NCBI GenBank assembly: GCA_964445375.1
Contig: CAYUKO010000001.1
Location: 9,302 to 73,301 of the forward strand
Source of the DNA: an uncultured Roseburia sp.
Lineage (GTDB): Bacteria; Bacillota; Clostridia; Lachnospirales; Lachnospiraceae
Length of the DNA stretch: 64,000 nucleotides
Direction of reading: 5' to 3'
Both the position numbers and the translations under genes were made by a program. This document shows positions 1-33,906 of the stretch, piece by piece (within the stretch, counting starts at the first letter, position 1; each line of letters opens with the position of its first letter). The notes under the pieces were generated by a model, which was not told where the DNA came from, ran no database searches, and saw only the letters and a list, made by a program, of their open reading frames with translations.

Positions 1-1661
1 TTATGACCCAATAAATGTTCTATTGATTCCATAACAGCCTGCTCTGTCTCGTTATCCAATGCCGATGTCGCTTCATCCAATACCAGAATCTCGGGATTGG
101 TATACAACGCTCTTGCAATACCGATTCGTTGTCTCTGACCGCCTGATAATCTCACGCCACGTTCACCAATCTTAGTGTCAAGCCCCTCTGGTAAGCTTTC
201 TACGAATTCCTTAAGCTGTGCCTGTTCCAATGCAGCCCAGATCTTCTCATCCTCACCTTCATCAACCACAATTCCAAATGCAACATTATTACGAATCGTA
301 TCATCAGATAAGAATATCGTCTGTGGTATATATCCCAGCTTATCTGCCCATTCACCTGCATGCTTTCTAATGTCTTTCCCATCACATAGAATCGTTCCTT
401 CAGACACTTCCAAAATACCAAGAATAACATCTGCCAGTGTCGTTTTTCCCGCACCGGACGGCCCCACAAAAGCAACTGCCTGCCCTTTACGAATATTCAT
501 GTTAATACCTGACAGAATCTCAACCTCTGTATTAGGATACATATAATGAATATTTTCCAGCCTTATCTCATCCTCAAAGGTTAAGGCATCTTCCTTCCTG
601 CCTTCTTCCTCTAACACCTCTCGCGTATACTTATGTTCTTCACTCATCTTCAAATCTTCATACACATGATCCATATATGGATAATTAAAGATAATCTGAT
701 TAATACATCCGTTTACCACACTGATTCTCGGGAATAAGCGGAATAAAGCCATCGCAAAAACAGACAGTTTCGGAACAAATATCGCTACATCCTCACCATT
801 CAGAATACGAAATGCAATCATAAGCAATAATACAATGACACAGAAAATCTCAAGAACCAAATGTGGAATCTGATTCAGGAAAGAAAATATCTTCTGTACA
901 TGAATATAAGAACCATAGTAGCCTGAATAATTATCAACGAAATATTGTTCTCTCTTGAGAATCTTGATCTCCTTAATTCCACCAAATGCCTGCATAAGCC
1001 ACTGTCCCTGCTTAGCACTGCATTCCTGTGATTGCTTTCCATATCTGAGGGATCTTGCTTTATTCCAACGAACAAAAAGAGTAACGAATAGAAACATTAC
1101 AATAATCATACTCATTGATAATATAAAATCTGTATAGAGTAAAAATGCACCAAAGATAACCATCATCAGACAGCTTGACAGCATAATCAAACACTGCATA
1201 ACCAACTGAAAGAACTGGTTTACATCTGTTCCGACACCTCGCATCAACACAGAAGAATTCTTCTCCAGAAAAAAGGAATATGGTTCTGCCATATAGCTCT
1301 TCATCAGTCTCACACCGATTTCCCTCTGATTATCAAATACAAATGCATTTCTTGCATAATAAGCAAATGCATTAAATAAATTCTTAACAACATACACTCC
1401 TATCAATGCGATTGCAATCCATACAAAAAATTCATTATTTGACTTCACTCCCAATGCATCATAGAAATAACTTAACATCTTATTGGTATGAATCATCTCA
1501 GGACTAAGCATTACTGCAATAAACGGATAAATCGATATAACACCCGTTAACTCCAAGATTGCTTCTCCTATAAGAATGGCTATCATACCAAGCAACTGCT
1601 TCTTCTGACGTTTCGTAAATATATAACTAATCTTCGCATAGATATCCTTTATATGATTCAT
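1..1661 (-). CDS. ABC transporter permease/ATPase, PglK/WlaB/HetA-like lipid-linked glycan flippase (3' end outside window)
   Basis: Absent from the ORF track because it has no stop in the window. Translated by hand from ATG 1661 (MNHIKDIYAKISYIFTKRQKKQLLG...): N-terminal TM domain, Walker A GPSGAGKT, signature LSGGQRQR, Walker B ILVLDEATSALD. Paralog of 29552..31297. Confidence 0.9.
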   Translation of the reverse strand, partial: MNHIKDIYAKISYIFTKRQKKQLLGMIAILIGEAILELTGVISIYPFIAVMLSPEMIHTNKMLSYFYDALGVKSNNEFFVWIAIALIGVYVVKNLFNAFAYYARNAFVFDNQREIGVRLMKSYMAEPYSFFLEKNSSVLMRGVGTDVNQFFQLVMQCLIMLSSCLMMVIFGAFLLYTDFILSMSMIIVMFLFVTLFVRWNKARSLRYGKQSQECSAKQGQWLMQAFGGIKEIKILKREQYFVDNYSGYYGSYIHVQKIFSFLNQIPHLVLEIFCVIVLLLMIAFRILNGEDVAIFVPKLSVFAMALFRLFPRISVVNGCINQIIFNYPYMDHVYEDLKMSEEHKYTREVLEEEGRKEDALTFEDEIRLENIHYMYPNTEVEILSGINMNIRKGQAVAFVGPSGAGKTTLADVILGILEVSEGTILCDGKDIRKHAGEWADKLGYIPQTIFLSDDTIRNNVAFGIVVDEGEDEKIWAALEQAQLKEFVESLPEGLDTKIGERGVRLSGGQRQRIGIARALYTNPEILVLDEATSALDNETEQAVMESIEHLLGH

Positions 1662-1667
1662 CAATAA

Positions 1668-3017
1668 CTAACCTCTTCTTAACTCTTTTCTATATCCTAA
1701 AAATCTCTCCATAACATCTGCCATAGCTATGGATTCCTCTTGTGTAAGCTTATATGTTCTTCCCTCGTGTCCATAGATCAAATGAGCAAAGTCACTTATC
1801 TCATAACGTAATCCTTGTCCAAGAAATTTCACAAAATGTTTGTCTACCTTATTCGGATCCTCATATCGTACTTCAAAGGACTTTGTTAACCACCATGGAG
1901 ATTCCGCCAGAATATATCCCTTCGTTCCAGCAATAATCAATTGCCCCTCCGACTTCACTCCAACGCCAGTCTTGGATAATGCAAACCCCTGTTCATAGCG
2001 AAAAGATGCTTTGGTATATAAGTCAATCTTATTCTCTGCCATGATACTATCAAAGCGCACTTCTTTATAATCCGTTCCCATTAACTTAATAATCGGGAGT
2101 AAAGTATAGCTTCCAAATTCGGTAAATCCTCCGCCATATTGCTGATCTACCATCTCACGAAGGCCATCTTGTGTCAATCTGGTAAAACATGCTTCCACAT
2201 CCCGGATTTCTCCAATCGTACCACTTTTAGCAATTGCCACCAATTGTGCAAATCCGGGAGAATACGCTGTTTTAATTGCTTCCATCAATACACATTGATT
2301 CTCATTAGCTATCTGATAAAGTTCCTCTGCCTGTGCCTTAGAAAACGCCATTGGTTTCTCGCATAATACATGCTTTTTATTTAACAATGCCTGCTTGGCA
2401 TACTCATAATGTGTTTCATGCGGTGAAGCAATATATACTGCATCCACATCTTCAAAAAAGCCTTTCAAATCATCCGTATAATGACTTAATTCAAACTGTT
2501 TTGCAAACGCTTCTGCACTTGTAATATGTGGATTATAAACACTGCGTACGGTAACACCACTGACATATTTCGCTTCTGGTATGAATCTTTTAGCAATGCG
2601 TCCTGTTCCTATTATTCCAATGCGAATAATAGAACGATTATTCGTTCTAAGTAATGTCGATGATACATTCTTCGTTCTTTCCAGATATACTACTTCACAA
2701 ATATCCTTTAGATAGTCAAAAGCCCCTACCCAGTCAGAACCAACCGTAAAGATATCTACTCCATACTTGAGAATATCCTCTATCTTCTGTCCCGAATGAT
2801 CTTCAACAATAATTTCATCCGCCAAGCCCGTCTTTCTTACATTATCAATTCTGTCTATCAAAGAATCAACAATATTGAGCTTTCCTCTTGACTCATCATA
2901 TTGCTCTGTTGTAATCCCAACGATTAAATAGTCGCCTAACGCTTTTGCTCTTTTTAACAGATTATAATGCCCCTCGTGAAACAGATCAAAGGAGCCATAT
3001 GTAATTACCTTCTTCAT
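1668..3017 (-). CDS. Fusion: TagD-like (glycerol-3-phosphate-type) cytidylyltransferase + Gfo/Idh/MocA oxidoreductase
   Basis: N-terminal TYGSFDLFHEGH (HxGH) and VYLERTKNVSST. C-terminal Rossmann GIIGTGRIA, VYIASPH and LCEKPM motifs. Confidence 0.88.
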   Translation of the reverse strand: MKKVITYGSFDLFHEGHYNLLKRAKALGDYLIVGITTEQYDESRGKLNIVDSLIDRIDNVRKTGLADEIIVEDHSGQKIEDILKYGVDIFTVGSDWVGAFDYLKDICEVVYLERTKNVSSTLLRTNNRSIIRIGIIGTGRIAKRFIPEAKYVSGVTVRSVYNPHITSAEAFAKQFELSHYTDDLKGFFEDVDAVYIASPHETHYEYAKQALLNKKHVLCEKPMAFSKAQAEELYQIANENQCVLMEAIKTAYSPGFAQLVAIAKSGTIGEIRDVEACFTRLTQDGLREMVDQQYGGGFTEFGSYTLLPIIKLMGTDYKEVRFDSIMAENKIDLYTKASFRYEQGFALSKTGVGVKSEGQLIIAGTKGYILAESPWWLTKSFEVRYEDPNKVDKHFVKFLGQGLRYEISDFAHLIYGHEGRTYKLTQEESIAMADVMERFLGYRKELRRG

Positions 3018-3045: not shown

Positions 3046-3999
3046 TTATGTCTCATCTGCATCAAAATTAATCCGCTTCTCTTCTACAACAATGGGTCTA
3101 TGAATGACTCTCGTATTAATATTCAAGATATATTCTCCCAAGAATCCAATGAAGAATAACTGCATAGACCCAATCAAGAATATACCAATTATCATTGGCG
3201 CCTGACCTGCCTGAAAACCATTCCAATTACACAATTTCATGATAAAATATACAACTGCTACGATAAGGCTCAAGCTTCCCATAATAAATCCAAGCCAGGT
3301 TGCGAGTCTAAGACCTACCTTGGTATAAGAAGTAAAGCTAAGCATTGCTGCATCGTACAAGCTGTAGAAATTGTTATGTGTTTTACCTGCTCTTCTTTGC
3401 GGTTGCTCATATTCAATCTCAGTCATATTAAAACCGGCTCCGTATTCCGCTACAATCCCTCGAATAAATGGAATCGAATCATCTAACTGCCTTAGTAATG
3501 AAATAAATGTCTTATCATATAATCCAAAGCCCGTAAAATGTTCAATCATCTGAACACTGGACATATTTTTTATCGCTTTATAATACATAGAACGCATAAA
3601 ATAAATCAATCCTGGCTCTTTACTGGACGATTTAATTCCACTGACTATCTTATGTCCTTTCTCCCATTCCTTCACAAATACCGGAATCAGTTCTACCGGA
3701 TCCTGAAAGTCACAACATAATGGTATCGTACAATCCCCTGTTGTCTGACACATTCCATAGAAAGGAGAATTGAATTGCCCAAAATTAGTTACATTAAAGA
3801 TTGCCTTTATCTTCTTATTACCTGCACAGATTTTCTCCAACTTATCTCTAGTTCCATCTGTTGATGCATTATCAATAAAAAGAACCTCATAATCATACTG
3901 TGGTAGCTGCGTCTCTAATACTTCTACTACTGCCTGACTAATCGGTTCTACATTTTCCACTTCATTATAGCACGGTATCATAATGCTAATCTTTTTCAT
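3046..3999 (-). CDS. GT2 polyprenyl-phosphate glycosyltransferase (GtrB/ArnC/YkcC-like)
   Basis: KISIMIPCYNE, IDNASTDGT, CCDFQDPVELI, two C-terminal TM helices, FIGFLGEYI. Start moved to ATG 3999; the longer ORF extension spans a terminator and promoter. Confidence 0.9.
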   Translation of the reverse strand: MKKISIMIPCYNEVENVEPISQAVVEVLETQLPQYDYEVLFIDNASTDGTRDKLEKICAGNKKIKAIFNVTNFGQFNSPFYGMCQTTGDCTIPLCCDFQDPVELIPVFVKEWEKGHKIVSGIKSSSKEPGLIYFMRSMYYKAIKNMSSVQMIEHFTGFGLYDKTFISLLRQLDDSIPFIRGIVAEYGAGFNMTEIEYEQPQRRAGKTHNNFYSLYDAAMLSFTSYTKVGLRLATWLGFIMGSLSLIVAVVYFIMKLCNWNGFQAGQAPMIIGIFLIGSMQLFFIGFLGEYILNINTRVIHRPIVVEEKRINFDADET

Positions 4000-4041
4000 T
4001 GCTTTTCCCCACTTAATCTTTCTCAATTCATCTGTAAACAT

Positions 4042-4086
4042 AAAAAGTAGAATGTAAACAGAGTACAAACTCTTTTCACATTCTAC
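4042..4086 (-). terminator. Intrinsic terminator ending unit B
   Basis: Minus strand GTAGAATGTGAAAAGAG-TTTGTA-CTCTGTTTACATTCTAC-TTTTT: 17-nt arms with one G-U pair and one mismatch, followed by a U-tract, downstream of the 4137 stop. Confidence 0.8.
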
Positions 4087-4108
4087 CTCATTCGACACCT
4101 ATCGTCAA
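4080..4108 (-). promoter_or_regulatory. Sigma-A-like promoter for unit C
   Basis: TTGACG (4108-4103), 17 nt spacer, TAGAAT (4085-4080) on the minus strand, upstream of GT2 ATG 3999. Confidence 0.7.
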
Positions 4109-4136: not shown

Positions 4137-5501
4137 TTAAAATAATTCAACCACTTTCCACAAGTATGTTTCCACGGTTGACACTAGCTCGTTAATCAGA
4201 TTCTGATGAAAAGTACCATTGATAGCTGCATAACAAAGCAAAAAGATATAATAATACTTATTTAAGCGAACATTTCTCACGTACTCTTTCGTCGCTTGTA
4301 CTACATTTTCATCATGAATTCGATTCAGAAGCCATATTATGGCAAACTCATACATAAATGCGCCATTCGTATATCTTCCATAATCATTCAAAAGTAAATA
4401 ACAAGGGAAAACGGTCAGCGCTCCGAATGGCAGCAAGCCATAAAACCAGTATAACTTCGTTCCATTTTCTTTCGCATACCTTACCGCCAATCTCCAATAC
4501 TTATAAATCTCATAAAAGAACGGTGCAAACAGGATTGCCATAGCTACTAAAAGCAGTCCATATTCATAAATATAAAAATGCCAACTGGTAAAGACTCTTT
4601 TTATCATACTGAACAATGAGTTTGAATTTGTATTTGTTTCTGGCACTTCCACGACTGGCGTGATGTCTTGCGCATCTGTCGAAACATTCTCCTCCGGTAT
4701 CTCTACCTCTTCACGAATCGGCATATCCTTAAAGATAAATGATGCTATCGTTCCACTATGATTGCTAGCTACTTCTTCTGCTGACTTATCCACAAATTCC
4801 GCTGTTCGTTCTATAACGTAGTCCATATAGATTCCCTCTTTTACATGCGCATAAAATTGCACATAAACAAAAAGCGAACCAACACATAATACATTAACCA
4901 ACAGCAGAAGGAATCGTTTTATATTATACTGCTTCTTTGGCATCACAAATGCCTGATATACTAAAAATGCCAGCACTAGGTTCCAATAAGTAAAAACATA
5001 TGCTGGATAAATCAAAACACCAATGCAACATACTACAACAGAAAGCCAGACATGCTTATTCTTTGCAAGCAAATAAACAGCAAATAACGAACACATTTCA
5101 ATCCACACATCTGTCAATGCAAAGTTACTATAATTTGCTACCCAGCCAGGTCCCATAAAGAAGGCTAACGCCAACCCCTTAAAAAAGAATTTCACATCCG
5201 CATTCTTTTCGCTTCCTAATGCCTTATAAATAATATAGAAATATATTATGGTATAAAATGACACCGTAAATATTCCGTAAATATATCTCATATACCCCCA
5301 CGGGATATGGCACACTGTAGAAATCACATCTAAAATTGTCCCCAAAAAGCCTCTCTGTATAAAACCATATCGATAAGAGAACGATAACATAATCTGATTC
5401 CAGCCCCCGAATTTAAAAGGGAAGTAGCGAATCGCCTGTGCTACCATGGTTGCAAAAATAACAAAATAATAATTTTTATTCTCTTTCCAGTTTTCTCTCA
5501 T
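4137..5501 (-). CDS. Multi-pass membrane protein of unknown function (possible GT-C or acyltransferase)
   Basis: About 10 hydrophobic segments, YRYGFIQRGFLGT motif near the N-terminus, acidic low-complexity loop in the middle. Confidence 0.75.
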   Translation of the reverse strand: MRENWKENKNYYFVIFATMVAQAIRYFPFKFGGWNQIMLSFSYRYGFIQRGFLGTILDVISTVCHIPWGYMRYIYGIFTVSFYTIIYFYIIYKALGSEKNADVKFFFKGLALAFFMGPGWVANYSNFALTDVWIEMCSLFAVYLLAKNKHVWLSVVVCCIGVLIYPAYVFTYWNLVLAFLVYQAFVMPKKQYNIKRFLLLLVNVLCVGSLFVYVQFYAHVKEGIYMDYVIERTAEFVDKSAEEVASNHSGTIASFIFKDMPIREEVEIPEENVSTDAQDITPVVEVPETNTNSNSLFSMIKRVFTSWHFYIYEYGLLLVAMAILFAPFFYEIYKYWRLAVRYAKENGTKLYWFYGLLPFGALTVFPCYLLLNDYGRYTNGAFMYEFAIIWLLNRIHDENVVQATKEYVRNVRLNKYYYIFLLCYAAINGTFHQNLINELVSTVETYLWKVVELF

Positions 5502-5513
5502 AATTTTCCCACC

Positions 5514-6932
5514 TTATCTCACCAAGCTGTTACCAATAATCCCTACTGAGTCAGCTATCACTTGGCTTTCCTCATCAAAAATGACGATATTGATACCCTC
5601 TTCACTCTTCTGATAATTTTTCTTATTCCAGTATATTCCACCTTGATCAACTAATAATTCCTTATCTCCAAACCGATCTGCCCAATAATAACCATAATCT
5701 GTTTTACTTACACACTGAATTCCCGTATCACTTATAACCCATGCACAATTATACTTTGCCTCATCTGTTGAAATTCCCCAAGTGTTTAACAAACTTTTCA
5801 TATTCTTACAAGAATCACCTTCAATCATCTTTCCTTTTACAGAAATCATAATCGTATAATGTTCCGGTAGCTTTTGTATCATATCACTATAGCTGTTTAT
5901 GTCTTGAATCTGTGATATTTCAAAGTTTATCAGATTATTTTGATAGTATCTTAATGCATGATCCCATGATACATATTTTTCTCTTTCATCCGTATGCGCC
6001 TTCCATTGATAATGACTTGTTAAATAATTACTTAAATAACGGGAAAAGCGGACATTACCAATGTATCCCATATGGTCACCATCCATAAAATCCGTATCCC
6101 AGTTAATTCCGATTTCCTCATATTGTTCATTGAAATTGCAAAAATCTACACCATATTCCTCTGCTATATCTTTTGCTGTATTATAGATGCCCATATGCCC
6201 TTCGTCATAATTTACATATGGAACAACTGCTATCAGCAAGGGAATATTTTCTTGCTGGCACAATTCTATAATCTTACGATAATATTCTTCCTGCTTTTCT
6301 GCAAGCTCAATTCTGGTGCCATCATTAACAACCTGTGGCTTTTCAAAAGAATATGCCGCATATCCTTCTCCAAATCCTTTCCATGATGAATAATATGCTT
6401 TATCATCAAGATACGGTTTATAATCAGCTGCTGTTAAATTCTTATATCGATTATGATATTGAATGTACTCGAAACCGAATTCCAGCCACCTATCTTCTGG
6501 TACGCTAGTCATTAATGCTCCTAGCTTATTAGTTATGGATTTTATACCATATACATTCTTAATGACTCTACTATCATCGGCATACTCTTCCTCTTTAGTC
6601 AATCCAAACCCTTCAAGAATAACCAACTGAGGAGATTGTTTCTTTAATGCTTCACGCAAAAAATAATAGCTATTCCATAACGGTGCTATAGAACCACATA
6701 ATTCAAAAGTTGCAATCTCTGATTCTTCCCAGATAATCATCGGATTTATATTCACAAACGCATGTGAGCTTCCCAAAACAAGTACATCTACGGTATCTTC
6801 CTCAAGCTCATAAAAGGTCTTCATCTGATAAATTCCATCATTAGACTTAAAAGAAAACACTTTATGAAAAGCTATTATTGCTATTATTAAAACAACTATT
6901 AAACCCATTGCATAAGCATAATTTTTTTTCAT
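5514..6932 (-). CDS. Membrane-anchored SGNH/DltD/AlgJ-like protein, partner of MBOAT
   Basis: N-terminal signal/TM, VLVLGSSH (block I Ser), DFMDGDH (DxxH); directly downstream of an MBOAT. Confidence 0.75.
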   Translation of the reverse strand: MKKNYAYAMGLIVVLIIAIIAFHKVFSFKSNDGIYQMKTFYELEEDTVDVLVLGSSHAFVNINPMIIWEESEIATFELCGSIAPLWNSYYFLREALKKQSPQLVILEGFGLTKEEEYADDSRVIKNVYGIKSITNKLGALMTSVPEDRWLEFGFEYIQYHNRYKNLTAADYKPYLDDKAYYSSWKGFGEGYAAYSFEKPQVVNDGTRIELAEKQEEYYRKIIELCQQENIPLLIAVVPYVNYDEGHMGIYNTAKDIAEEYGVDFCNFNEQYEEIGINWDTDFMDGDHMGYIGNVRFSRYLSNYLTSHYQWKAHTDEREKYVSWDHALRYYQNNLINFEISQIQDINSYSDMIQKLPEHYTIMISVKGKMIEGDSCKNMKSLLNTWGISTDEAKYNCAWVISDTGIQCVSKTDYGYYWADRFGDKELLVDQGGIYWNKKNYQKSEEGINIVIFDEESQVIADSVGIIGNSLVR

Positions 6933-6943
6933 CTAATGTCTCC

Positions 6944-8437
6944 CTAAAATTGAAAATATATAAATGTCTGTGCGTCAAATGCAGGACCATATGCACCAAA
7001 GATGATTATCGCCAAAGACAAAAGTACAATACAAAGATATTGAAAAATCACATTTTGTTCTAAAACAAAATCTACAATAAATATACGCTTATAATACTTT
7101 AGTAAGTCCGAAAGAAACAGTATCAGCAAGGATACCAGCAATATATTCATTTCTGTTCTATCTAACCCTAATGAATATAATCCTCCATTTGATAGTACCC
7201 ATGGATTAAAATCAATAAAGATTCTCTTAATATAAGATAATGCAACTTTTATTCCATCTGCTCTGAAAAAAATCCACGCAAAATCTACTAAAATAAAGGT
7301 TACTACTGTTTGTCCCAGCTTATAGCTAAAGCATTCGGTATTGACACGGCATATCTCTATGACCTTCTTTTTCATGGGCTGTAGTATATCGCCTACTATC
7401 TGAAATACTCCATGAATTCCTCCCCATACAACATATGTCATTGCTGCGCCATGCCATAATCCGCTCACCAGAAATGTAACCATAAGATTAAAATACCTGC
7501 GTATTTTTGTACAACGACTACCTCCTAAAGGAATATATAGATAATCTCTAAACCAGGAGCTTAATGAAATATGCCATCTTCTCCAGAATTCCTTTATACT
7601 TCTTGATAAATACGGAGCATCAAAATTTTCCATTAAAGAATATCCTAAAACTTTCGCTGCCCCAATTGCAATGATAGAATAACTTGCAAAATCACAATAT
7701 ATCTGAATTGCAAAAGCTGCTGCTCCTGCAACGAGCTCCACTCCACCATATAAGTAGTAATGCTCGAAGACGGTATCTACCAAGCTGACAATCCTGTCGG
7801 CTATTACCATTTTCAGGAACAATCCCCAAAGCATATATAAAAGTCCTTGAAATATTCTTCTATAATCTACTTTTCTTCTTGAGTCTTCCTGAATCTGCGA
7901 CAATAGATTCTTTGAACGTTCAATTGGTCCTGCAACAAGTTGTGGAAAAAAAGAAACAAACAGAGCATATTTTAAAAGATTCTTCTCTGGTTTTATATCT
8001 CCTCTATATACATCAATGGAATAGCTTAATGCCTGAAATGTATAAAATGATATGCCTACCGGTAATAAAACATCTACTTTCGGAATATTAACTGTAATAT
8101 CTATCTTCTGTAAGCAAATGGTTATCCATTCAATGAAGAAATTACTGTATTTAAAGTATCCCAATATTCCTAAATTTGCGACCAAAACAACTATCAGAAC
8201 TACTTTTCTACGTATACCTGATAAATTACTTACTCTTGAACTCCCTATTATTCTACTTCCCGAATAGGTAATTACTGTAGATGTTAACATCAATAATGCA
8301 TACTCAGGATTCCATGACATATAAAAATAATAGGAGCATATAAGCAGCCATATATATCGAATTTTCTTAGGCACTACATAATATCCCAATACTGCAATTG
8401 GAAAAAAGAACATAAAATCGATTGAATTAAAAAGCAT
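6944..8437 (-). CDS. MBOAT O-acyltransferase (AlgI/PatA/DltB-like)
   Basis: MLFNS start, LPVGISFYTFQALSY, EFWRRWHISLSSWFRDYLYIPLGG, VSGLWHGA. Confidence 0.93.
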   Translation of the reverse strand: MLFNSIDFMFFFPIAVLGYYVVPKKIRYIWLLICSYYFYMSWNPEYALLMLTSTVITYSGSRIIGSSRVSNLSGIRRKVVLIVVLVANLGILGYFKYSNFFIEWITICLQKIDITVNIPKVDVLLPVGISFYTFQALSYSIDVYRGDIKPEKNLLKYALFVSFFPQLVAGPIERSKNLLSQIQEDSRRKVDYRRIFQGLLYMLWGLFLKMVIADRIVSLVDTVFEHYYLYGGVELVAGAAAFAIQIYCDFASYSIIAIGAAKVLGYSLMENFDAPYLSRSIKEFWRRWHISLSSWFRDYLYIPLGGSRCTKIRRYFNLMVTFLVSGLWHGAAMTYVVWGGIHGVFQIVGDILQPMKKKVIEICRVNTECFSYKLGQTVVTFILVDFAWIFFRADGIKVALSYIKRIFIDFNPWVLSNGGLYSLGLDRTEMNILLVSLLILFLSDLLKYYKRIFIVDFVLEQNVIFQYLCIVLLSLAIIIFGAYGPAFDAQTFIYFQF

Positions 8438-10312: not shown

Positions 10313-11290
10313 CTACTTTTCAAGGCATGATATTACAATCTGAGCTATCGCTTCCATGTCTTGTTCTGAATACCGCTGATCCATTGGCAATGGTATTAAG
10401 TATTTTGAAAGTTTCTTCTCAAACAGATTTGCCTCATTACTTTCCAGCACAGCTTTCCACCATTGAGGAACATAAACATGATTCTCAATCAGTTTGCCTC
10501 TTAATAAATCATTTGAAGCCAAAAATGGATAAACCATAGGAGCATTGATACCTTCTAAAGGGATTTCAAGCTCATTATAATCAGATAATGTATGATGCAG
10601 CGCCTTGAAATTGTCTGTTCTTTTCTTTTGAACCGAAGCATAGTCGACAGATTCCAATATACGATGCGTTAATAAAGACATTTCTAATATTGTTTCATCC
10701 TCAATTTTCTCCTCATTCAGGAGACTTTCATGATACAATTCATTTGTTCCCAGCTCATATACCTGTAATAAATAATCAATCTTACTAGAAGAGCTTTTTT
10801 CTAATTCTCTTTTTCTAAGATTCTTTTGGTAAAGATATGCGCCATCGCTTACGCCAAAAAATTTTCTACACGAATAAACAAAGTAGGAATCACCAAACGG
10901 TTCATGAAAAAAGGCTTGTGTATTATCGATAATTAATTGCGAACCATATCGGCCTGAGAGCATTTCTATATCGCTTTTCTTAGCAATGCCAAAATAATTC
11001 GCCCAAAACATACATTCCTTTTCTTTCAATATGATATCGGGAGGTAAAAATTTCTCATCAATGCTATAATACTCAATTTGAATGTCTGATTCTCGCTGAA
11101 TAAACTCTGCAACAGAAGGACACATAAATATTGGCAGATAAACTTTCTCAAAGGAACCATCTTGTATTGCTAAAAGAATAGCACTTCTGGCTTTATTTAA
11201 AGCTATAACATGTTCCATCTGATAATATTCCTGCCCACGCGATAACTCTAATGGAAGATAACCACCATATTCTTTAGTATTCCTTATCAT
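10313..11290 (-). CDS. Short DegT/RffA-like PLP-dependent (amino)transferase-fold protein
   Basis: WANYFG, IIDNTQAF (PLP-binding Asp), YSCRKFFGVSDGA (putative PLP Lys), PLPMDQRY C-terminus; 325 aa. Confidence 0.65.
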   Translation of the reverse strand: MIRNTKEYGGYLPLELSRGQEYYQMEHVIALNKARSAILLAIQDGSFEKVYLPIFMCPSVAEFIQRESDIQIEYYSIDEKFLPPDIILKEKECMFWANYFGIAKKSDIEMLSGRYGSQLIIDNTQAFFHEPFGDSYFVYSCRKFFGVSDGAYLYQKNLRKRELEKSSSSKIDYLLQVYELGTNELYHESLLNEEKIEDETILEMSLLTHRILESVDYASVQKKRTDNFKALHHTLSDYNELEIPLEGINAPMVYPFLASNDLLRGKLIENHVYVPQWWKAVLESNEANLFEKKLSKYLIPLPMDQRYSEQDMEAIAQIVISCLEK

Positions 11291-12833
11291 TTTTGTTATT
11301 TCCTTTCTTTCGGATTTTCTGCAAATATGGCTTAAAAATCGTATTAAATGCTTTCTGCATATTCTTAGTTCTTCCGAAGAATATGATAATCAGCAATGCT
11401 ATTACAAGTTCCGCCACAAGTCCCCGGCAGATAAATTGTAAGATTGGATTTGCGATTACTACATAGCAGATAATATGTTTTACAGCATAAGTAATCGCAA
11501 CAAATGCTACTGTATAAATTACATTTAACAACCAATACTGAATATATACACTAGCTTTCCCTTCAAAGCACTTCTTATTTACCACATAACTTCTTCCGAT
11601 CCAATAAATTCCAAGTGCAAATAAAGTTCCAAGCAATACACCTTCTATTCCCATAAACTGAACAAGAATAATAGAAGAAATCAGGTTTACTCCAGCTGCC
11701 ATTGCGGATATCCATTTATCTTCCTTGAACATGCCATACCCTCTCATAATCATACAATTAGGTTCATGCACCGTATTCATATATATATCAGCTACAATCA
11801 GCCCCAGTAAAAGAGGACTAATAACATATTCCTCTCCAATCCACATGATTACGAAGTCATCCGCTAATCCTAAAATCGGTATTAACATAATGGAACAGAT
11901 TACAAATTGCAGGAAGATAAACATGTGAAACATCTCTTTAATCCTATTTGCGTCCTTTTCCTCACTTAAGAAATTACCCCATGTAGGATTCAGGGAACTA
12001 TTCACGATATTTATTAATTGGCGAATTGACTGTGTAATTGTCTTATAATTAGACAGTAAACCTACTAGTAAAGATCCACAAAATGCTGAAATAACCATAC
12101 TATCCGTTGAACGATATACATATCCTGATATATTACCAAGCACAATCTCTTTCAAATCGGATATTAAATTTACTTTTTCTTCTTTGCTTGTCTCAAATTT
12201 TTTCAATACTAACGGATACTTCTTTTTACAATACCGGGAAATAATGTAGTTAGAGCCGAATAGCTGAACAAACTGCAACAATAGATATAAAATGTAGCTT
12301 TTTGCATATATAATAACGATGAATTTTATTGCATAAATCGCTATATTAAAGAAAATATCAACTGTCGTGCAAAAATATTGATTCTGGTAGGCACCGAGCA
12401 AAGTACGATAATAGTTCACATAGTACGCTGCTGCGGTTGCAGTCAATTGAATAATATAGACCAAATATACAATCTTCATATCAATTGTCGTATTCACAAT
12501 CAAATGAATAAATGGTATACAGGCAATTCCTCCAATTATAATAGCTGTACCAACAATACGATATGCTTTCTTAAATAAGGTAAAGATTTCGCCTATTTTA
12601 GCCTCATCACCTTCTGCAATTGGCTTATACAACCGATAAGAAATGGAGTATTGAATTCCAAGTTCACTTAATGCAAGCATGTTGATTACTTCTACGATTG
12701 TTGCATTTACACCAAGAATTTCTACTCCCAGATAATAAATCAGATATCTTCTGACAACCATTGCCAGAACAATACAAATCATTTGATTAATTAAGTTAAC
12801 GATCGAGTTTCTAATTGCCAGTTTACTTCTCAT
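11274..12833 (-). CDS. wzx: Wzx/MOP-family polysaccharide flippase
   Basis: About 14 TM segments, 519 aa, typical N-terminus (IRNSIVNLINQ...LGVEILGV) and GIEGVLLGT motif. Confidence 0.85.
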   Translation of the reverse strand: MRSKLAIRNSIVNLINQMICIVLAMVVRRYLIYYLGVEILGVNATIVEVINMLALSELGIQYSISYRLYKPIAEGDEAKIGEIFTLFKKAYRIVGTAIIIGGIACIPFIHLIVNTTIDMKIVYLVYIIQLTATAAAYYVNYYRTLLGAYQNQYFCTTVDIFFNIAIYAIKFIVIIYAKSYILYLLLQFVQLFGSNYIISRYCKKKYPLVLKKFETSKEEKVNLISDLKEIVLGNISGYVYRSTDSMVISAFCGSLLVGLLSNYKTITQSIRQLINIVNSSLNPTWGNFLSEEKDANRIKEMFHMFIFLQFVICSIMLIPILGLADDFVIMWIGEEYVISPLLLGLIVADIYMNTVHEPNCMIMRGYGMFKEDKWISAMAAGVNLISSIILVQFMGIEGVLLGTLFALGIYWIGRSYVVNKKCFEGKASVYIQYWLLNVIYTVAFVAITYAVKHIICYVVIANPILQFICRGLVAELVIALLIIIFFGRTKNMQKAFNTIFKPYLQKIRKKGNNKNDKEY

Positions 12834-25972: not shown

Positions 25973-27559
25973 CTATTCTGCTAAATCAACATTCATTTGT
26001 TCTATGATACACTCGTGTTTCTTCGCATCTTTATCATAGTTAATACCTACTAAGAGTAAATTGCCCTTATATTCCAAAAGACTCTCTGTATATTTCTTAT
26101 CCTTTATCTGGGCAATTGCTCCCTGCACACTCTTATCATATTTTAATTCTATTACCATTGCAGGCTTATCTGCTGCTTTTGCTTTCGGGATAAATACAAT
26201 ATCAGCATAGCCTTTTCCTGTGGGCAGTTCACGAAATACAGAATAATACTCTCTTGCTGCATAAAATGCCAGTGAAATCGTATAACTGAGTGCATTCTCA
26301 TCATTATATGTCAAAATAGAAGTCTCATAATGTGCCTTTTCCACACCCTTTGCAACCGCATTGGCATCCATTGCCCATGCGCTCTTCAACAAAGCTTCCG
26401 ATTCCTTTACGGAACGGATGATTTCTCCCCATGAAGTATTCCTGATTGCTGTAATAAACTCTTTCGAAATCTCTTTATTCGGAATATAGACTTCTTCCTT
26501 TTCCCAATCATAGGCAAGGTAGCCCAAATGAACAAGCAAGGTCAGAACATCTTCATAATTATGGAATGTTGTCATATCGTTGACAAAGCTTCTTACATCA
26601 ATCTGTACATGTTCTCCTGCAAGCATTCGTATGATAGCATCCTTCAATCCATCATAATTCATATCAATATATGTTCGTAATGCTTCAAATGTCTCGGTCT
26701 GATTCCAGTAAGTATCAAAAGCATTCGCAAGCATTGCCCCCACAACTGACCTCGGATTATAAATGGATGCAACCTTCCCCAGATGATAACCATCATACCA
26801 AGTCTTTGTATCTTCAAAGCTCATTTCATATCGCTCGCACAACCCTTTTACTTCCTTTTCATTGAAGCCAAAATATCCGGCAAGCTGTCCTGCATTTGTC
26901 ATAGAGTATTCCGTAAACATATTCAATGCAGAATGTGTTCCATATTTCTTGATTGGCAGGATTCCTGTCATATAGGCAAGAGAGATGTATTCTTTATCTT
27001 TAAGCCAATTACGCAGAAAATCAAGATATTTTCCCTGTTCTTCCTTTTTGTCCTTGTATTCTCGGAAGATGCAGTCCCATTCGTCTACTAATATAACAAA
27101 ATATCTTTCATTTCTTCTATAAACATCCTGCATAACCCAAGACAACGAACTTTCATTTGTCTCATCTACGATATCCGGATATTTCTCTTTGAATTCTTTT
27201 ATCACTCTTATTTCGAGCTGTTTTAACAATTCCTCAGAAGAATACGTTCTTCCAATGAATTCCGTCATATTAATACGAATCACATCATATTGATTCAAAT
27301 GCTTCTTATAGCTCTTAGCCTTGCCAATTTCCAAATCTTTAAATAACTGATCCGAATCACTTTCTGCGTTATAATAAGCTGACAGCATTTTAATAGCCAT
27401 CGACTTACCAAATCTTCTCGGTCGGCTGACACAGACAAATCTTTGTTCTGTATTTATCAAACGGTTCAACTGCTCGATAAGTCCTGTTTTGTCAACATAT
27501 ATCTCTGAATTAAGACTGTCTTGAAAACCTTTTGTCGTTGGATTTAAATAATATCCCAT
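25973..27559 (-). CDS. Predicted AAA-ATPase with C-terminal PD-(D/E)XK nuclease domain
   Basis: YVDKT, SRPRRFGKS (Walker A), VILVDEWD (Walker B), YNPRSV, C-terminal RELPTGKGYADIV...VIELKY...QI...Y. Confidence 0.9.
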   Translation of the reverse strand: MGYYLNPTTKGFQDSLNSEIYVDKTGLIEQLNRLINTEQRFVCVSRPRRFGKSMAIKMLSAYYNAESDSDQLFKDLEIGKAKSYKKHLNQYDVIRINMTEFIGRTYSSEELLKQLEIRVIKEFKEKYPDIVDETNESSLSWVMQDVYRRNERYFVILVDEWDCIFREYKDKKEEQGKYLDFLRNWLKDKEYISLAYMTGILPIKKYGTHSALNMFTEYSMTNAGQLAGYFGFNEKEVKGLCERYEMSFEDTKTWYDGYHLGKVASIYNPRSVVGAMLANAFDTYWNQTETFEALRTYIDMNYDGLKDAIIRMLAGEHVQIDVRSFVNDMTTFHNYEDVLTLLVHLGYLAYDWEKEEVYIPNKEISKEFITAIRNTSWGEIIRSVKESEALLKSAWAMDANAVAKGVEKAHYETSILTYNDENALSYTISLAFYAAREYYSVFRELPTGKGYADIVFIPKAKAADKPAMVIELKYDKSVQGAIAQIKDKKYTESLLEYKGNLLLVGINYDKDAKKHECIIEQMNVDLAE

Positions 27560-29551: not shown

Positions 29552-31297
29552 TTAATGTAATGAAGTTTGTTCAATTTTTCCATCTTCCACTTTATAAATA
29601 ATATCACACTTTTCAATGGTATTAAGTCTATGCGCAATGATGACCATCGTCTTCTTGCCATGGAAGCTGTTGATTGCTTCCATAACAGCCTGCTCTGTTT
29701 CATTATCCAGTGCAGAGGTTGCTTCATCAAATACCAAAATCTCCGGGTTATGATAGAGCGCTCTTGCAATACCAAGTCGCTGTCTCTGACCACCCGAAAG
29801 TCTGACACCCCTGTCACCGATTGTTGTATCCAAGCCTTCCGGCAAAGTCTTAATAAAGTCTTTTAACTGTGCTTCCTCTAATACCTGCCAGATTCTTTCA
29901 TCATCGATTTCTTCATCTGCAATACCAAAAGCAATGTTATTTCTAATTGGTTCATCCACCAGATAAATAGCCTGTGGAATATAGCCTATCTGTGCAAGCC
30001 ATGCCGGATAGTTATCAAAGATATTCACACCATCACAGGTAATCGAACCCTCATGAACTCTCAATAATCCAAGTAAGATATCAACAATCGTGGATTTACC
30101 TGCACCGGATGGTCCCATAATACCAACCGACTTACCATAAGGCACTTCCATATGTGCATGGTCAAAAATCAGCTTGTCTGTATTTGGATAAGCATACACA
30201 ATATTCTTTAACTCAATCTTATCTCTTAGTTTAATCTCTACTGTAGAATCCTTAGATAACAAGTTCGGATTTGTTTTCTCGCTTATTGCATTAATATTCA
30301 TATTCTCATATACATAATCCAGACATGGCTTTTGGTACGCAATCTCTGTCATATACGTATTGATTCTGTTTGCACTAGGCATTAATCGCATCGCTGCCAA
30401 CGCAAATACAGATAATAATGGAATCATTTCCATAACATCATTTCCTGCCAGAATATATACGATCAAATAGCAAATAAAACTTGTCATAAATAAGGTTTCA
30501 ATCATTAATCTTGGCACATTATTCATAACAGAATATCTTCTTGCATAGCCGGCTCCAACTTTACCGGTATTCTCATAATTATCTGCAAAAAAAGCTTCCC
30601 TGTGAAGAACCTTTACATCCTTAATACCATAAATAGCCTGAATTCTCCACTTTGCAATTCTTGACTGAATTGCCTGATTCTTACTGCCAAGCTTTGATAA
30701 TCTTGGTTTCAATACCTTTAACATAAGTAAAGTAACGAATCCTAATACAACTACTACAAATAAGGTCATCTTCCAATCTGTTGCTATTAGAACACAGCTT
30801 AACAGTACAAATACTACCGATTCCGATACTAAGGAAATGATTGCCATAATCATATTAAATACATTCGGAATGTCACTGTCTGTCAAACGAAAAACGGTTG
30901 GAATATCTGCATCCAGATAGAATTCATACGGTCTGTTTAAAAACTCGCGAAGAACTCTGCTGATTAACTGATTTCGATTCGTACAAATAAAACGGTTCTG
31001 TTCATTTACCAGCACTAATAAGTAAAGATTCTTAATGATGTACATTACAATTAATAGAACTAGCAATGGTATCACCAAGTCCTGTGCGTCCTCAATATGC
31101 AGGAAATTCATTACTTTTTGTCCATACTTATTCTGGGCTATGGCATCCGGGCTAAGAATTGCCATAACAACAGGAAGCATTGCAGAAACACTTAATGTCT
31201 CCAATAATCCTCCAATAAAAATCATAACACCCAGAACTCCAATTTGTTTCTTCTGACTCTTATTCAAAATGTAGTTCAATTTTTTTAAGATTTCCAT
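29552..31297 (-). CDS. ABC transporter permease/ATPase, PglK/WlaB/HetA-like flippase
   Basis: Six-TM N-terminal domain, GPSGAGKST, LSGGQRQR, LVFDEATSALD, IAHRL. Confidence 0.92.
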   Translation of the reverse strand: MEILKKLNYILNKSQKKQIGVLGVMIFIGGLLETLSVSAMLPVVMAILSPDAIAQNKYGQKVMNFLHIEDAQDLVIPLLVLLIVMYIIKNLYLLVLVNEQNRFICTNRNQLISRVLREFLNRPYEFYLDADIPTVFRLTDSDIPNVFNMIMAIISLVSESVVFVLLSCVLIATDWKMTLFVVVVLGFVTLLMLKVLKPRLSKLGSKNQAIQSRIAKWRIQAIYGIKDVKVLHREAFFADNYENTGKVGAGYARRYSVMNNVPRLMIETLFMTSFICYLIVYILAGNDVMEMIPLLSVFALAAMRLMPSANRINTYMTEIAYQKPCLDYVYENMNINAISEKTNPNLLSKDSTVEIKLRDKIELKNIVYAYPNTDKLIFDHAHMEVPYGKSVGIMGPSGAGKSTIVDILLGLLRVHEGSITCDGVNIFDNYPAWLAQIGYIPQAIYLVDEPIRNNIAFGIADEEIDDERIWQVLEEAQLKDFIKTLPEGLDTTIGDRGVRLSGGQRQRLGIARALYHNPEILVFDEATSALDNETEQAVMEAINSFHGKKTMVIIAHRLNTIEKCDIIYKVEDGKIEQTSLH

Positions 31298-31321: not shown

Positions 31322-32386
31322 CTACCTGAAAATACTTTCGTAATCGTAATTCAGATAATATTCCTTCTCTATTTCTAAACGCTCCAAATAATTATCTTTG
31401 GTTACAAGTCCATCTTCAGAAGCCATCCACTCTAAAATCTTAGAATTAATTTCTGCCGAATAATGCTCCTTGTCACGATAATTATCGGTATTTGTAATCA
31501 CATCGTACTTTTCATAGAAGTTAAACAGTTTTACATTCGGACACTCAAGAAGCAACTCTGTTGCAATCTGTTCTGCTTCAAACTGCATCTTCATCATGCC
31601 TTCCTGATTTAAAAAATCCCAGTAACAAATGCTATATGGTGTATAAAAAATGTAAAAAGTCGTATCCGGATACTGATTAACCAAATCAACAAAGTTCTCT
31701 TTGATATTAGCAGTAACCATCTCTCTTTCTTCTTCCGTGAGACCTTCTATCATGTCTGCTTTCTCTTCCCACCGGTCATAGCTTTGCATGATAAATGCAA
31801 GACCTGTCTCTTTATCCCAGGAAGAGTATTCATCCATAGTCGTACTAGACCGTCCTAATAATGTCTTTCCCACATTCGGTAATACGCCATGATACATAAT
31901 AGACTTATTGAACACATATGATACGTCGTTCCATGGATTCTCATCATATAAATATGTTGGATATCCTTCATATTGTGTCCAGTCTTTCTCTCTTATAAAT
32001 GCATTGTAGTCCATGGTCCAAATCACCGTTTTGAGATTCTCATTACGCTGCAATGCTCTCTCCAGATTCTCCGACAGCTCCTTGTAACCTGCTCCTGAAA
32101 AAGTCTCTTTCACGGACTGCGTTCCAAATAATGTATCTATTTCACTCGTCTTAAAGTTCTGTGCCATAGATGTTCCTGTCACAATGGCATCGTAATCAAA
32201 ATGCCTTGATATCCCATCATTTGTATATCGCTCATCATACAGCCTATACGATACAAATGAAAACGGCTTGTGAAAATGGAAATACGGATCAAACACATAC
32301 ACGACAGCAAATATAAGAAAAATTGTTCCAAACAGACATATTATGCACTTTTTAAACCATTTCTTTGATTGATTATTCTCTTTCAC
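31322..32386 (-). CDS. Membrane-anchored SGNH/DltD/AlgJ-like protein, partner of MBOAT
   Basis: N-terminal TM, IVTGTSM (block I Ser), YRDKEHY (DxxH); GTG start; downstream of an MBOAT. Confidence 0.72.
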   Translation of the reverse strand: MKENNQSKKWFKKCIICLFGTIFLIFAVVYVFDPYFHFHKPFSFVSYRLYDERYTNDGISRHFDYDAIVTGTSMAQNFKTSEIDTLFGTQSVKETFSGAGYKELSENLERALQRNENLKTVIWTMDYNAFIREKDWTQYEGYPTYLYDENPWNDVSYVFNKSIMYHGVLPNVGKTLLGRSSTTMDEYSSWDKETGLAFIMQSYDRWEEKADMIEGLTEEEREMVTANIKENFVDLVNQYPDTTFYIFYTPYSICYWDFLNQEGMMKMQFEAEQIATELLLECPNVKLFNFYEKYDVITNTDNYRDKEHYSAEINSKILEWMASEDGLVTKDNYLERLEIEKEYYLNYDYESIFR

Positions 32387-32436
32387 TTTCTAAATCCCTT
32401 GCTAGAAATGTAACCATTCAATACCTTCATAGTTAC

Positions 32437-33906
32437 CTAGAAATTAACATATAAAAACTCACTTACTTCCGATAGTGACAAAATACTCCATACCATAAGC
32501 AGTACAATAACGAAAATTCTGCCATTGGTGAATCGCATCTCCTTCACCTTTTCCTGCGTGTTCTTCATAAAGAAGCATGCAAGAAGCAAAACAATGACAA
32601 ATAGAATCAGAAGCATTCCCGGATAAGAAGTAATCACACCACTAAGTCCCAATCTATATAACAGCTTTATCTCTGTCATATCGTTAAATACTTCTGTGAT
32701 TGGTGCATAAATCGCTCCCCAATCTGCCACAAAGAACCTGCTCCATAAGTTTCTTGCCTGCTCCACGGAATCTGCCCTGAATAAGCTCCACGCAAAAGAA
32801 GCAAATACAAACGTTCCTGCAACACGAATCCCCTTTGGAATCCTGGCTAATACTGTCTTAACCGGTTTCCAGCGTTCTATGATATTCAATACTCCATGCA
32901 TAGCGCCCCATAAAAGAAAGCTCCAGTTTGCTCCATGCCAGAAGCCACTCACCAGAAATACAATCATGACATTGAGATATGTTCTGGCTGCGCCTTTTCT
33001 GTTTCCACCCAAAGGGATATAGACATATTTTGTAAAAAAGCGCGTTAATGTCATGTGCCATCTTGACCAGAAATCAATAATGGACTGCGCCTTATATGGT
33101 GAATTAAAATTAACAGGTAATTCGATGTTAAAGAAATATCCAACACCCGATGCCATATCGCAATAACCACTAAAATCAAAATAAATCTGTAGCGAATAGC
33201 AAATCATAACAAGTAATGTACTTGGTATATTTAACTCATGAATGCTGCCATAACCAATCGTAACAACCTTAGAAAGCGTATCTGCAAGCAGTACCTTCTT
33301 GGCAAGACCTAATGCAAATGCATAGATTCCCTTTGCTAAATTATCATAATTTAGTCTTTTATTCTCAATCTTGCGAAACTGTGGTATCAGCTCATGATGA
33401 TACGTAATCGGTCCCTGAATCAGCTTTGGAAAAAAGGTTACATATGCCGTATATTCCAAGAACCCGTATTTCTCGCAATCTCCTTTGTAATAGTCAATGA
33501 CATAAGACAATTGCTGGAATGTATAAAAGCTGATTCCTAACGGCAGAATCAATTCCAGCAGTGCAATATCCGTTTTGAATACCACATTCACATTTTCCAA
33601 AAAGAAATTGAAATACTTAAAATAAAGCAAAGCTCCTATATTCCATACCAAACCTGCCAGGAAAAGGCTTTTACGTCCAAGTTCTCCCTTAGCCCTTGAC
33701 ATTGCCTCAATCAATATATAATTTATCAGAATGCTAATCAGCAGTATCAACAGATAACTTGGATTCATATACCCGCAGAACCACATGGACATACCTGTTA
33801 AAAACGCCAACGCAAGCTTATACTGTTTCAAATAATTCAGTCCATAGTACCCAAACAATACCAATGGCAAAAACAAAAAGATAAAGATATAAGAATTAAA
33901 AAGCAT
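32437..33906 (-). CDS. MBOAT O-acyltransferase (AlgI/PatA/DltB-like)
   Basis: MLFNS, LPLGISFYTFQQ, YFDFSGYCDMA, FWSRWHMTL, VSGFWHGA. Confidence 0.93.
   Translation of the reverse strand: MLFNSYIFIFLFLPLVLFGYYGLNYLKQYKLALAFLTGMSMWFCGYMNPSYLLILLISILINYILIEAMSRAKGELGRKSLFLAGLVWNIGALLYFKYFNFFLENVNVVFKTDIALLELILPLGISFYTFQQLSYVIDYYKGDCEKYGFLEYTAYVTFFPKLIQGPITYHHELIPQFRKIENKRLNYDNLAKGIYAFALGLAKKVLLADTLSKVVTIGYGSIHELNIPSTLLVMICYSLQIYFDFSGYCDMASGVGYFFNIELPVNFNSPYKAQSIIDFWSRWHMTLTRFFTKYVYIPLGGNRKGAARTYLNVMIVFLVSGFWHGANWSFLLWGAMHGVLNIIERWKPVKTVLARIPKGIRVAGTFVFASFAWSLFRADSVEQARNLWSRFFVADWGAIYAPITEVFNDMTEIKLLYRLGLSGVITSYPGMLLILFVIVLLLACFFMKNTQEKVKEMRFTNGRIFVIVLLMVWSILSLSEVSEFLYVNF

Follow-up and report, generated by a model that had tools for sequence, protein, structure and literature searches.

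A cytidylyltransferase fused to an oxidoreductase

The stretch of DNA analysed here (the window, 64,000 nucleotides) covers positions 9302-73301 of contig CAYUKO010000001.1 (C1) in assembly GCA_964445375.1, from an uncultured Roseburia sp. of the Lachnospiraceae; a window position is the C1 position minus 9301, and the contig was also read to its start. The setting is a 64-kb glycan cluster of about 55 genes on a single strand, and close to its left edge lies a gene for a protein of 449 amino acids (aa), P0001, in which a TagD-like cytidylyltransferase (CT) domain is joined to a Gfo/Idh/MocA oxidoreductase (Ox) domain. The gene and its two parts are:

1668..3017, minus strand: the complete gene for the CT-Ox fusion P0001 (449 aa; coordinates include the stop), supported by the open reading frame (ORF), Pfam, homologs and AlphaFold2
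2637..3017, minus strand: TagD-like cytidylyltransferase domain, aa 1-127 (PF01467, 6e-17; TIGR01518, 100.9 bits; alignment to 1coz)
1671..2627, minus strand: Gfo/Idh/MocA oxidoreductase domain, aa 131-449 (PF01408, 2e-29; motif table; Foldseek)

The gene is one intact ORF with no internal stops or frameshifts. It begins with ATG, has an AGGA box 8-11 nt 5′ of that codon, and is packed tightly against its neighbors (28 nt from the preceding glycosyltransferase family 2 (GT2) gene and 3 nt to the next gene). Pfam places CTP_transf_like at aa 5-125 (6e-17), GFO_IDH_MocA at 131-246 (2e-29) and GFO_IDH_MocA_C3 at 256-369, leaving a linker of about 5 residues between the CT and Ox domains. Sequence searches of the PDB divide the protein in the same way: residues 1-124 are closest to Bacillus subtilis TagD (1coz, 4e-31), with Staphylococcus aureus TarD also among the nearest, and residues 131-439 are closest to the uncharacterized Gfo/Idh/MocA proteins 3e9m (5e-26), 3evn and 4had. 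An AlphaFold2 model of the full chain has a pLDDT of 92.8 and a pTM of 0.86.

The original prediction, made from the letters of the window, had read this gene as an in-frame fusion of a TagD-like and a Gfo/Idh/MocA domain, and the intact ORF, the Pfam and PDB matches and the homologs described below all show that fusion to be real. It had also set this domain pair apart from that of Bcs1, and that distinction holds, for TarI/TarJ as well: P0001 matched no IspD or short-chain dehydrogenase/reductase (SDR) family in the Pfam and NCBIfam scans. Among the papers searched, none was found on a cytidylyltransferase-Gfo/Idh/MocA fusion.

Occurrence of the fusion

The fused form is widespread. A word-indexed search returned at least 8000 homologs, and the best 120 (73-88% identity) all have both domains; the few of these that carry a name go by “Gfo/Idh/MocA family oxidoreductase” alone. 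At E <= 1e-30, 351 clusters came out of an exhaustive search of 50%-identity representatives. When contigs were compared with one genome per species, the two domains were fused in 80/80 of the best species loci, whose hosts include Lachnospiraceae, Oscillospiraceae, Selenomonadaceae, Paenibacillus, Desulfobacter, Bacteroidales, Akkermansia, Propionibacteriales, Fibrobacter and one Methanobrevibacter metagenome-assembled genome. The fusion thus spans phyla from Bacillota to Bacteroidota and Actinomycetota, plus Akkermansia. Within the window's own family, its distribution is patchy: a full-length copy is present in about 38 of 300 sampled genera (about one in eight), and the genus of the window is represented by one further genome, which lacks it.

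That the two domains might normally be separate genes, joined here by an assembly artefact, had been named at the outset as a way in which the prediction could fail. This is ruled out: the fused form is common across phyla, and is seen in every one of the top 120 homologs and top 80 species loci and in roughly 38 of 300 genera. The fusion is neither chance nor an assembly artefact.

The cytidylyltransferase domain

The top NCBIfam family for the N-terminal part of P0001 is TagD (TIGR01518, 5e-29), and the next family scores 51 bits. The TIGR01518 score is 100.9 bits (103.9 bits in a genome-wide search), against an equivalog cut-off of 165.4, which is not reached. A search of the genome found no bona fide TagD above that cut-off. 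On its sequence, P0001 is best placed as a new relative of known systems rather than filed as a TagD equivalog, because its domain pair differs from that of Bcs1 and its CT domain falls under the curated TagD cut-off.

The CT fold corresponds to that of TagD. The motif residues (H14-x-G-H17, R44, K46, R56, D95-W96 and R114-T-K-N-V-S-S-T121) are invariant or nearly so across 33 diverse representatives and 81 species-level homologs. The HxGH nucleotide-binding motif, present as H14-E-G-H17, is invariant in both sets, and the counterpart of RTxGISTT is R114-T-K-N-V-S-S-T121, in which the family shows no variation at R114, T115, S119 and S120. The roles of the TagD residues are taken from PMC8262930, according to which Lys44 and Lys46 contact the phosphates of CDP-glycerol. 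At these positions K46 is invariant and 44 is an invariant Arg in place of Lys; in the alignment to 1coz, TagD W74 is replaced by Ser75. These features point to a glycerol-phosphate-type head group, because TagD is by far the closest CT, its phosphate-binding residues are largely retained, and a canonical glycerophosphodiesterase is linked to the gene (see below). The unusual CDP-alditol that had been envisaged as the product finds nothing in its favor, for the same reasons.

The oxidoreductase domain

All of the catalytic motifs of the Ox domain are present in P0001: the Rossmann GxGxxG/A motif (G137-T-G139-R-I-A142; PF01408, 103 bits against a cut-off of 24), the EKP motif with its catalytic lysine (E220-K221-P222), and the acid and His/Tyr pair of GGx3(D)x3(H/Y), found as G296-G297...E300...Y304 with Glu replacing Asp. 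All of the members that keep the lysine have E300 (100%), and 93% of them have Y304; P374-W-W376 is a further conserved element. The catalytic motifs are intact and strongly conserved in 56/81 species loci, and in 15/17 of the close Ox paralogues that are fused to GDPD (the glycerophosphodiesterase domain). An inactive Ox domain, the second way in which the prediction might have failed, is rejected for P0001 at the level of motifs, with the Rossmann motif, the EKP lysine and the Glu/Tyr pair all kept.

The structural neighbors of the Ox part offer some guidance on its chemistry. The best Foldseek matches are 4had, 3e9m, dimeric dihydrodiol dehydrogenase (2o48), a Streptococcus pneumoniae NADP complex (4nhe) and the 3-ketoreductase KijD10, with 1,5-anhydrofructose reductase and GnnA as further neighbors. 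NADP(H)-linked reductases or dehydrogenases predominate among the closest structures, with 4nhe, KijD10, 1,5-anhydrofructose reductase and dihydrodiol dehydrogenase as the instances. The end of strand beta-2 (VYNPH) has no acidic residue, and in Rossmann folds in general the absence of an acidic residue there leans toward NADP(H). The cofactor of the P0001 Ox domain is probably NADPH.

A second Ox paralogue, about 50% identical and either standalone or fused to GDPD, directly follows CT-Ox in several loci (L008, L014, L015, L017 and L034; genomes G008, G134, G247, G262 and G295). At locus L015, the CT-Ox copy has lost Tyr304 and the Ox-GDPD copy is intact.

Gene surroundings

The neighbors of the fusion gene, on both sides and across the left edge of the window, are:

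3..1664, minus strand: PglK/MsbA-like ATP-binding cassette (ABC) exporter, directly downstream across the 3-nt gap; the complete gene, encoding 603 aa, extends some 150 nt beyond the left edge
C1:6873-9188, outside the window, same strand as the fusion: Metallophos-GDPD gene, 771 aa, third in the gene order
C1:6034-6861, outside the window, same strand as the fusion: LicD, 275 aa (PF04991, 2e-38), three genes downstream of the fusion
3046..4098, minus strand: GT2 polyprenyl-phosphate glycosyltransferase-like protein (PgfS/ArnC-like) with two C-terminal transmembrane segments, directly upstream across the 28-nt gap
4137..5501, minus strand: membrane protein of 454 aa to which the window scan assigned no Pfam family; it has six or more hydrophobic segments

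The 454-aa membrane protein may work with the GT2 protein by using the lipid-linked sugar that the latter produces. Downstream, the order is CT-Ox, PglK-like ABC exporter, Metallophos-GDPD, LicD, a 515-aa protein without a family, an MptE/Maf-like protein, NeuB, a CMP-sugar synthetase-HAD fusion and GT8. The LicD and Metallophos-GDPD genes lie about 0.1-3.3 kb past the left window edge. The original prediction had remarked that no TagB/F or LicD acceptor enzyme could be seen. For the window this stands, as no LicD or TagF was found there and seven ORFs of at least 150 aa without a Pfam family gave no such match (the six other than 31322-32386 still had no family at E <= 0.001 in a loose re-scan); but LicD sits just beyond, and the suggested search past the left edge turned up both LicD and Metallophos-GDPD on the same strand. 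With LicD in the gene string of the CT domain, the locus has the make-up of a LicD-dependent phospho-alcohol module. LicD was found in 39 of 81 related loci.

The GDPD half of the linked protein matches the Thermoanaerobacter tengcongensis GDPD 2pz0 (1e-63) and retains the HRG, ELD and HD motifs; the Metallophos half, about 430 aa, belongs to an unnamed family. CT-Ox, Metallophos-GDPD and LicD should all be cytoplasmic, because none of them has a transmembrane or hydrophobic segment. The genome also has a normal GpsA and six large flagellin genes, the latter on contigs other than C1.

Two further gene sets adjoin these subjects. The genes downstream of LicD within C1:1-6000 (the 515-aa protein, MptE/Maf-like, NeuB, CMP-sugar synthetase-HAD and GT8) look like a nonulosonic-acid, flagellin-type glycosylation set. 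A second LicD module in the same genome, at C12:10300-18400, has a 745-aa protein with a C-terminal TagD-like CT and 600 unassigned residues; two large LicD-containing proteins follow, one with a methyltransferase-like N-terminus, and next to the module is a rhamnan-type locus with RgpF and DUF4422 genes.

Partner domains in related loci

Recurrent fusions tie the fusion to a small set of partners. Representatives include Metallophos-CT-Ox, CT-Ox-GDPD, Metallophos-CT-Ox-GDPD (1240 aa) and CT-CT-Ox, as well as Ox-Metallophos, Ox-GDPD (many, about 600 aa), LicD-Ox-GDPD and Ox-GDPD-LicD. Because these five domain types recur fused in many orders, the pattern marks CT, Ox, GDPD, Metallophos and LicD as one functional unit.

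Gene neighborhoods agree. In the 81 related loci, scanned over 7 kb around CT-Ox with hidden Markov models built from sequences of this analysis, LicD is found in 39, a TagF-like protein (PF04464, 3e-67) in 19, and one or the other in 55; among loci with full flanks, 41/52 have LicD or a TagF-like protein. The smallest recurring set is CT-Ox plus one transferase, and the fusion must therefore be able to build its donor from common metabolites. Flagellin genes adjoin the module in five Lachnospiraceae loci, and in several loci separate IspD+epimerase-family and FGGY+LicC-like cassettes lie alongside CT-Ox.

In 18 Firmicute loci (including L016, L018-L021, L023, L025, L027, L028, L030-L033, L036, L055 and L067), the gene just upstream of CT-Ox encodes a conserved protein, about 850 aa long and without a Pfam family, that the window lacks.

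A proposed route to CDP-glycerol

From the observed domain architecture, intact catalytic motifs, gene linkage and recurrent domain fusions, we infer the substrates and the order of steps that follow. We tentatively favor, at a little short of even chances, a reading of P0001 as a bifunctional donor synthase that couples triose phosphate reduction to CDP-glycerol formation, with transfer by LicD and export by the ABC exporter. First, the Ox domain would reduce dihydroxyacetone phosphate (DHAP) or glyceraldehyde 3-phosphate to glycerol phosphate with NAD(P)H, probably NADPH. Second, the TagD-like domain would use CTP to form CDP-glycerol and pyrophosphate. Third, cytoplasmic LicD would move glycerol phosphate from CDP-glycerol onto a hydroxyl of the glycan made by the 64-kb cluster, and fourth, the PglK-like exporter would flip the lipid-linked product. 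Metallophos-GDPD would most likely be a salvage feed, releasing sn-glycerol 3-phosphate from glycerophosphodiesters.

The order of reduction and activation is suggested by loci in which the Ox domain has changed. The EKP lysine is kept in 56/81 species loci and replaced by Thr, Ile, Leu, Phe, Ser or Pro in 25/81. Of the 25 lysine-less loci, 22 have a gene for a classical SDR or class-V aminotransferase at most two genes away on the same strand, as against 2 of the 56 lysine-keeping ones (Fisher p = 1.5e-14, an association at the level of clades); GDPD or Metallophos lies within two genes in 19/56 lysine-keeping loci and 0/25 lysine-less ones. This suggests that another reductase or a transaminase could take over the Ox step where the lysine is missing. 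Aminotransferases require carbonyl substrates, and the shared precursor is therefore probably a carbonyl phosphate, which a lysine-keeping Ox domain, such as that of P0001, would reduce before cytidylyl transfer. The nearest solved relative of the linked aminotransferase is an uncharacterized E. rectale protein, followed by serine-pyruvate and 2-aminoethylphosphonate (AEP) transaminases. The lysine/partner pattern and the domain fusions lend comparative support to the earlier proposal that redox conversion is coupled to CDP activation.

Several points weigh against this route. The lysine state changes only about three times on the tree (in one 22-member Bacteroidota-centred clade, in L082 and in L084+L085), giving 2-3 independent pairs, so that at this level the association with the other enzymes is not significant. 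Most of the other conserved Ox residues are retained in the lysine-less clade, whose Ox domain may still be active; the case for replacement is weaker for it. Since the genome has its normal GpsA, it has no obvious need of another route to sn-glycerol 3-phosphate. The frequent Ox-GDPD fusion fits serial enzymes better than two parallel suppliers. Finally, the specificity of the CT domain may differ from that of TagD, because its score is below the curated cut-off (100.9 against 165.4) and W74 is replaced by Ser.

Another reading is that the Ox domain is mainly structural or regulatory (in oligomerization or NAD(P)H sensing) and that P0001 is a TagD-type CDP-glycerol synthase with an appended domain. 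In many of the 33 diverse representatives the Rossmann motif is degenerate and the EKP lysine missing, but the CT residues and a GTxGY...PWW core remain; in the 22-member clade, the lysine is replaced by Thr or Ile. We give this little credence for P0001, as all of its catalytic motifs are intact and they are strongly conserved in most of the species loci; the loss of the lysine, moreover, coincides with the arrival of another redox or amino-transfer enzyme, and the close GDPD-fused paralogues are largely intact.

The points about GpsA, the Ox-GDPD fusions and CT specificity could be met by a different head group: not ordinary sn-glycerol 3-phosphate but sn-glycerol 1-phosphate or another small polyol phosphate (a C4 or C5 alditol phosphate), activated by the CT domain for LicD. 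The sn-glycerol 1-phosphate could be made directly from DHAP, or by oxidation and re-reduction of the sn-glycerol 3-phosphate that GDPD or GpsA supplies. With GpsA already present, a dedicated reductase would be easier to explain if it made something else, and the Ox-GDPD fusions suggest further processing of GDPD-derived sn-glycerol 3-phosphate. The shortfall of the CT domain against the TagD cut-off and its Ser for W74 would fit as well. TagD-family enzymes specific for either enantiomer have been reported (Rodrigues 2017, as cited in PMC8262930), and fukutin and FKRP, of the LicD family, prefer CDP-1-glycerol (PMC8262930). We still judge such a head group unlikely: the phosphate-binding and catalytic residues of TagD are largely retained, the product of GDPD is the sn-3 isomer, and no particular alternative is directly indicated. 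As for the larger polyols, CDP-ribitol-type donors seem to be made by other genes, because the IspD+epimerase-family and FGGY+LicC-like cassettes coexist with CT-Ox in several loci. A bolder version, which we regard as quite improbable, would make Ox a new, non-homologous route to sn-glycerol 1-phosphate (from DHAP or by epimerizing the sn-glycerol 3-phosphate released by GDPD), with surface or flagellar glycans tagged via CDP-1-glycerol and Metallophos as an extra processing step.

The order of the two reactions could also be reversed. The CT domain would then make CDP-glycerol from sn-glycerol 3-phosphate of the pool (from GpsA or GDPD), and Ox would oxidize (to a keto or aldehyde form) or epimerize the nucleotide-linked glycerol before transfer. 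Structural relatives of Ox do act on nucleotide-linked substrates (KijD10 on TDP-sugars, GnnA on UDP-GlcNAc), fusion to the CT domain would permit hand-over of the CDP product, and such an order would explain why both GDPD, as the supplier of sn-glycerol 3-phosphate, and Ox are retained. It too appears improbable. The minimal module of CT-Ox and LicD or a TagF-like protein has no enzyme to finish an oxidized intermediate, the known donors of LicD and TagF are CDP-polyols or CDP-choline, and the Ox domains linked to aminotransferases, which have no lysine and often no tyrosine, could not supply a keto intermediate.

Among the lysine-less loci, L052-L083 and others, which are Bacteroidota-centred, have an SDR after CT-Ox or a class-V aminotransferase flanking it, and in the aminotransferase subtype Tyr304 is often replaced by Phe as well. 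These forms may make related donors, perhaps amino-polyol phosphates.

Relation to known systems

The closest parallels are the TagD/TarD (Gct) systems with TagF-like or LicD-like transferases, as in the wall teichoic acids of Bacillus and Staphylococcus and in Actinobacillus pleuropneumoniae Cps3B/7B with TagF-like polymerases. P0001 shares with them the CT fold, most of the catalytic and phosphate-binding residues, the genetic link to LicD or TagF-like transferases, and CDP-glycerol as the likely product. It also departs from them. Its CT domain is joined to a Gfo/Idh/MocA domain of 320 aa, does not reach the TagD equivalog cut-off, and carries R44 and S75 where TagD has K44 and W74; the gene, moreover, is linked to Metallophos and GDPD domains. 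Bcs1, the CDP-ribitol synthase of Haemophilus influenzae, and TarI/TarJ also unite a polyol-phosphate reductase and a cytidylyltransferase in one protein or gene pair; the reductase makes the polyol phosphate, which the cytidylyltransferase then activates, and Bcs1 reportedly reduces before activating. These systems pair an IspD-type CT with an SDR or medium-chain dehydrogenase/reductase, whereas P0001 pairs an HxGH-type CT with a Gfo/Idh/MocA domain, which makes it an analogue and not a homologue.

The pneumococcal Gtp1/Gtp2/Gtp3-WchX pathway, which is said to proceed through CDP-2-glycerol, likewise involves a reductase, activation with CTP and transfer of glycerol phosphate to a capsule sugar. 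Compared by annotation only, Gtp1-3 appear to belong to other families and to include an extra phosphotransfer step: the annotations in PMC3493582 give them as “glycerol-2-phosphate dehydrogenase”, “nucleotidyl transferase” and “phosphotransferase”. In the Fom1 CyTase and other PF01467 domains fused to phosphoenolpyruvate (PEP) mutase (PMC6697681), an HxGH-type CT is again fused to the enzyme of a neighboring step and feeds LicD-like surface decoration, but the pathway is a phosphonate one. A phosphonate route for P0001 (phosphonoacetaldehyde to hydroxyethylphosphonate, followed by Fom1-like cytidylylation) was considered in view of that report and the similarity of the linked aminotransferase to AEP transaminases; it is unsupported, as the genome, which is 95% complete, has no PEP mutase above cut-off. 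A CDP-glycerate donor also has no support, since CpgD (PMC12275187) is of the LicC type and unrelated to TagD.

When surface glycans carry phospho-polyol tags, for example glycerol phosphate, ribitol phosphate or phosphocholine, these influence charge, recognition by phages and antibodies, and interaction with the host. The fusion is found in many gut and rumen lineages, with LicD or TagF-like proteins, GDPD and Metallophos, or instead an SDR or aminotransferase, as recurring partners. If the CDP-glycerol reading is true, it would be a common non-orthologous route of donor synthesis, and glycerol-phosphate decoration could be predicted from genomes. The present analysis contributes the five-domain fusion network, LicD and GDPD at the left edge in this genome, and the lysine/partner pattern.

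Other features of the cluster

The remainder of the window holds several modules of its own. Two MBOAT acyltransferase genes (6944-8437 and 32437-33906, in modules 5514-8437 and 31322-33906) each have a partner gene after them, one DUF1574/SGNH-like with a single transmembrane segment and the other encoding a 354-aa protein without a family; the pairs look like two O-acylation modules for glycan. There are two PglK/MsbA-like half-transporter ABC exporters (3-1664 and 29552-31297), and the cluster also has a Wzx-like flippase (11274-12833) and Wzy_C-like proteins, which suggests more than one glycan or export route. Among the glycosyltransferases, a protein with AAA-ATPase_like and PD-(D/E)XK (PDDEXK_9) domains at 25973-27559 looks like a mobile or defence-type insert. 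Two asparagine-synthase-like amidotransferases (37482-39365 and 43117-44979) and an ATP-grasp protein (53781-54749) within the cluster probably serve amidation of uronic or nonulosonic acids.

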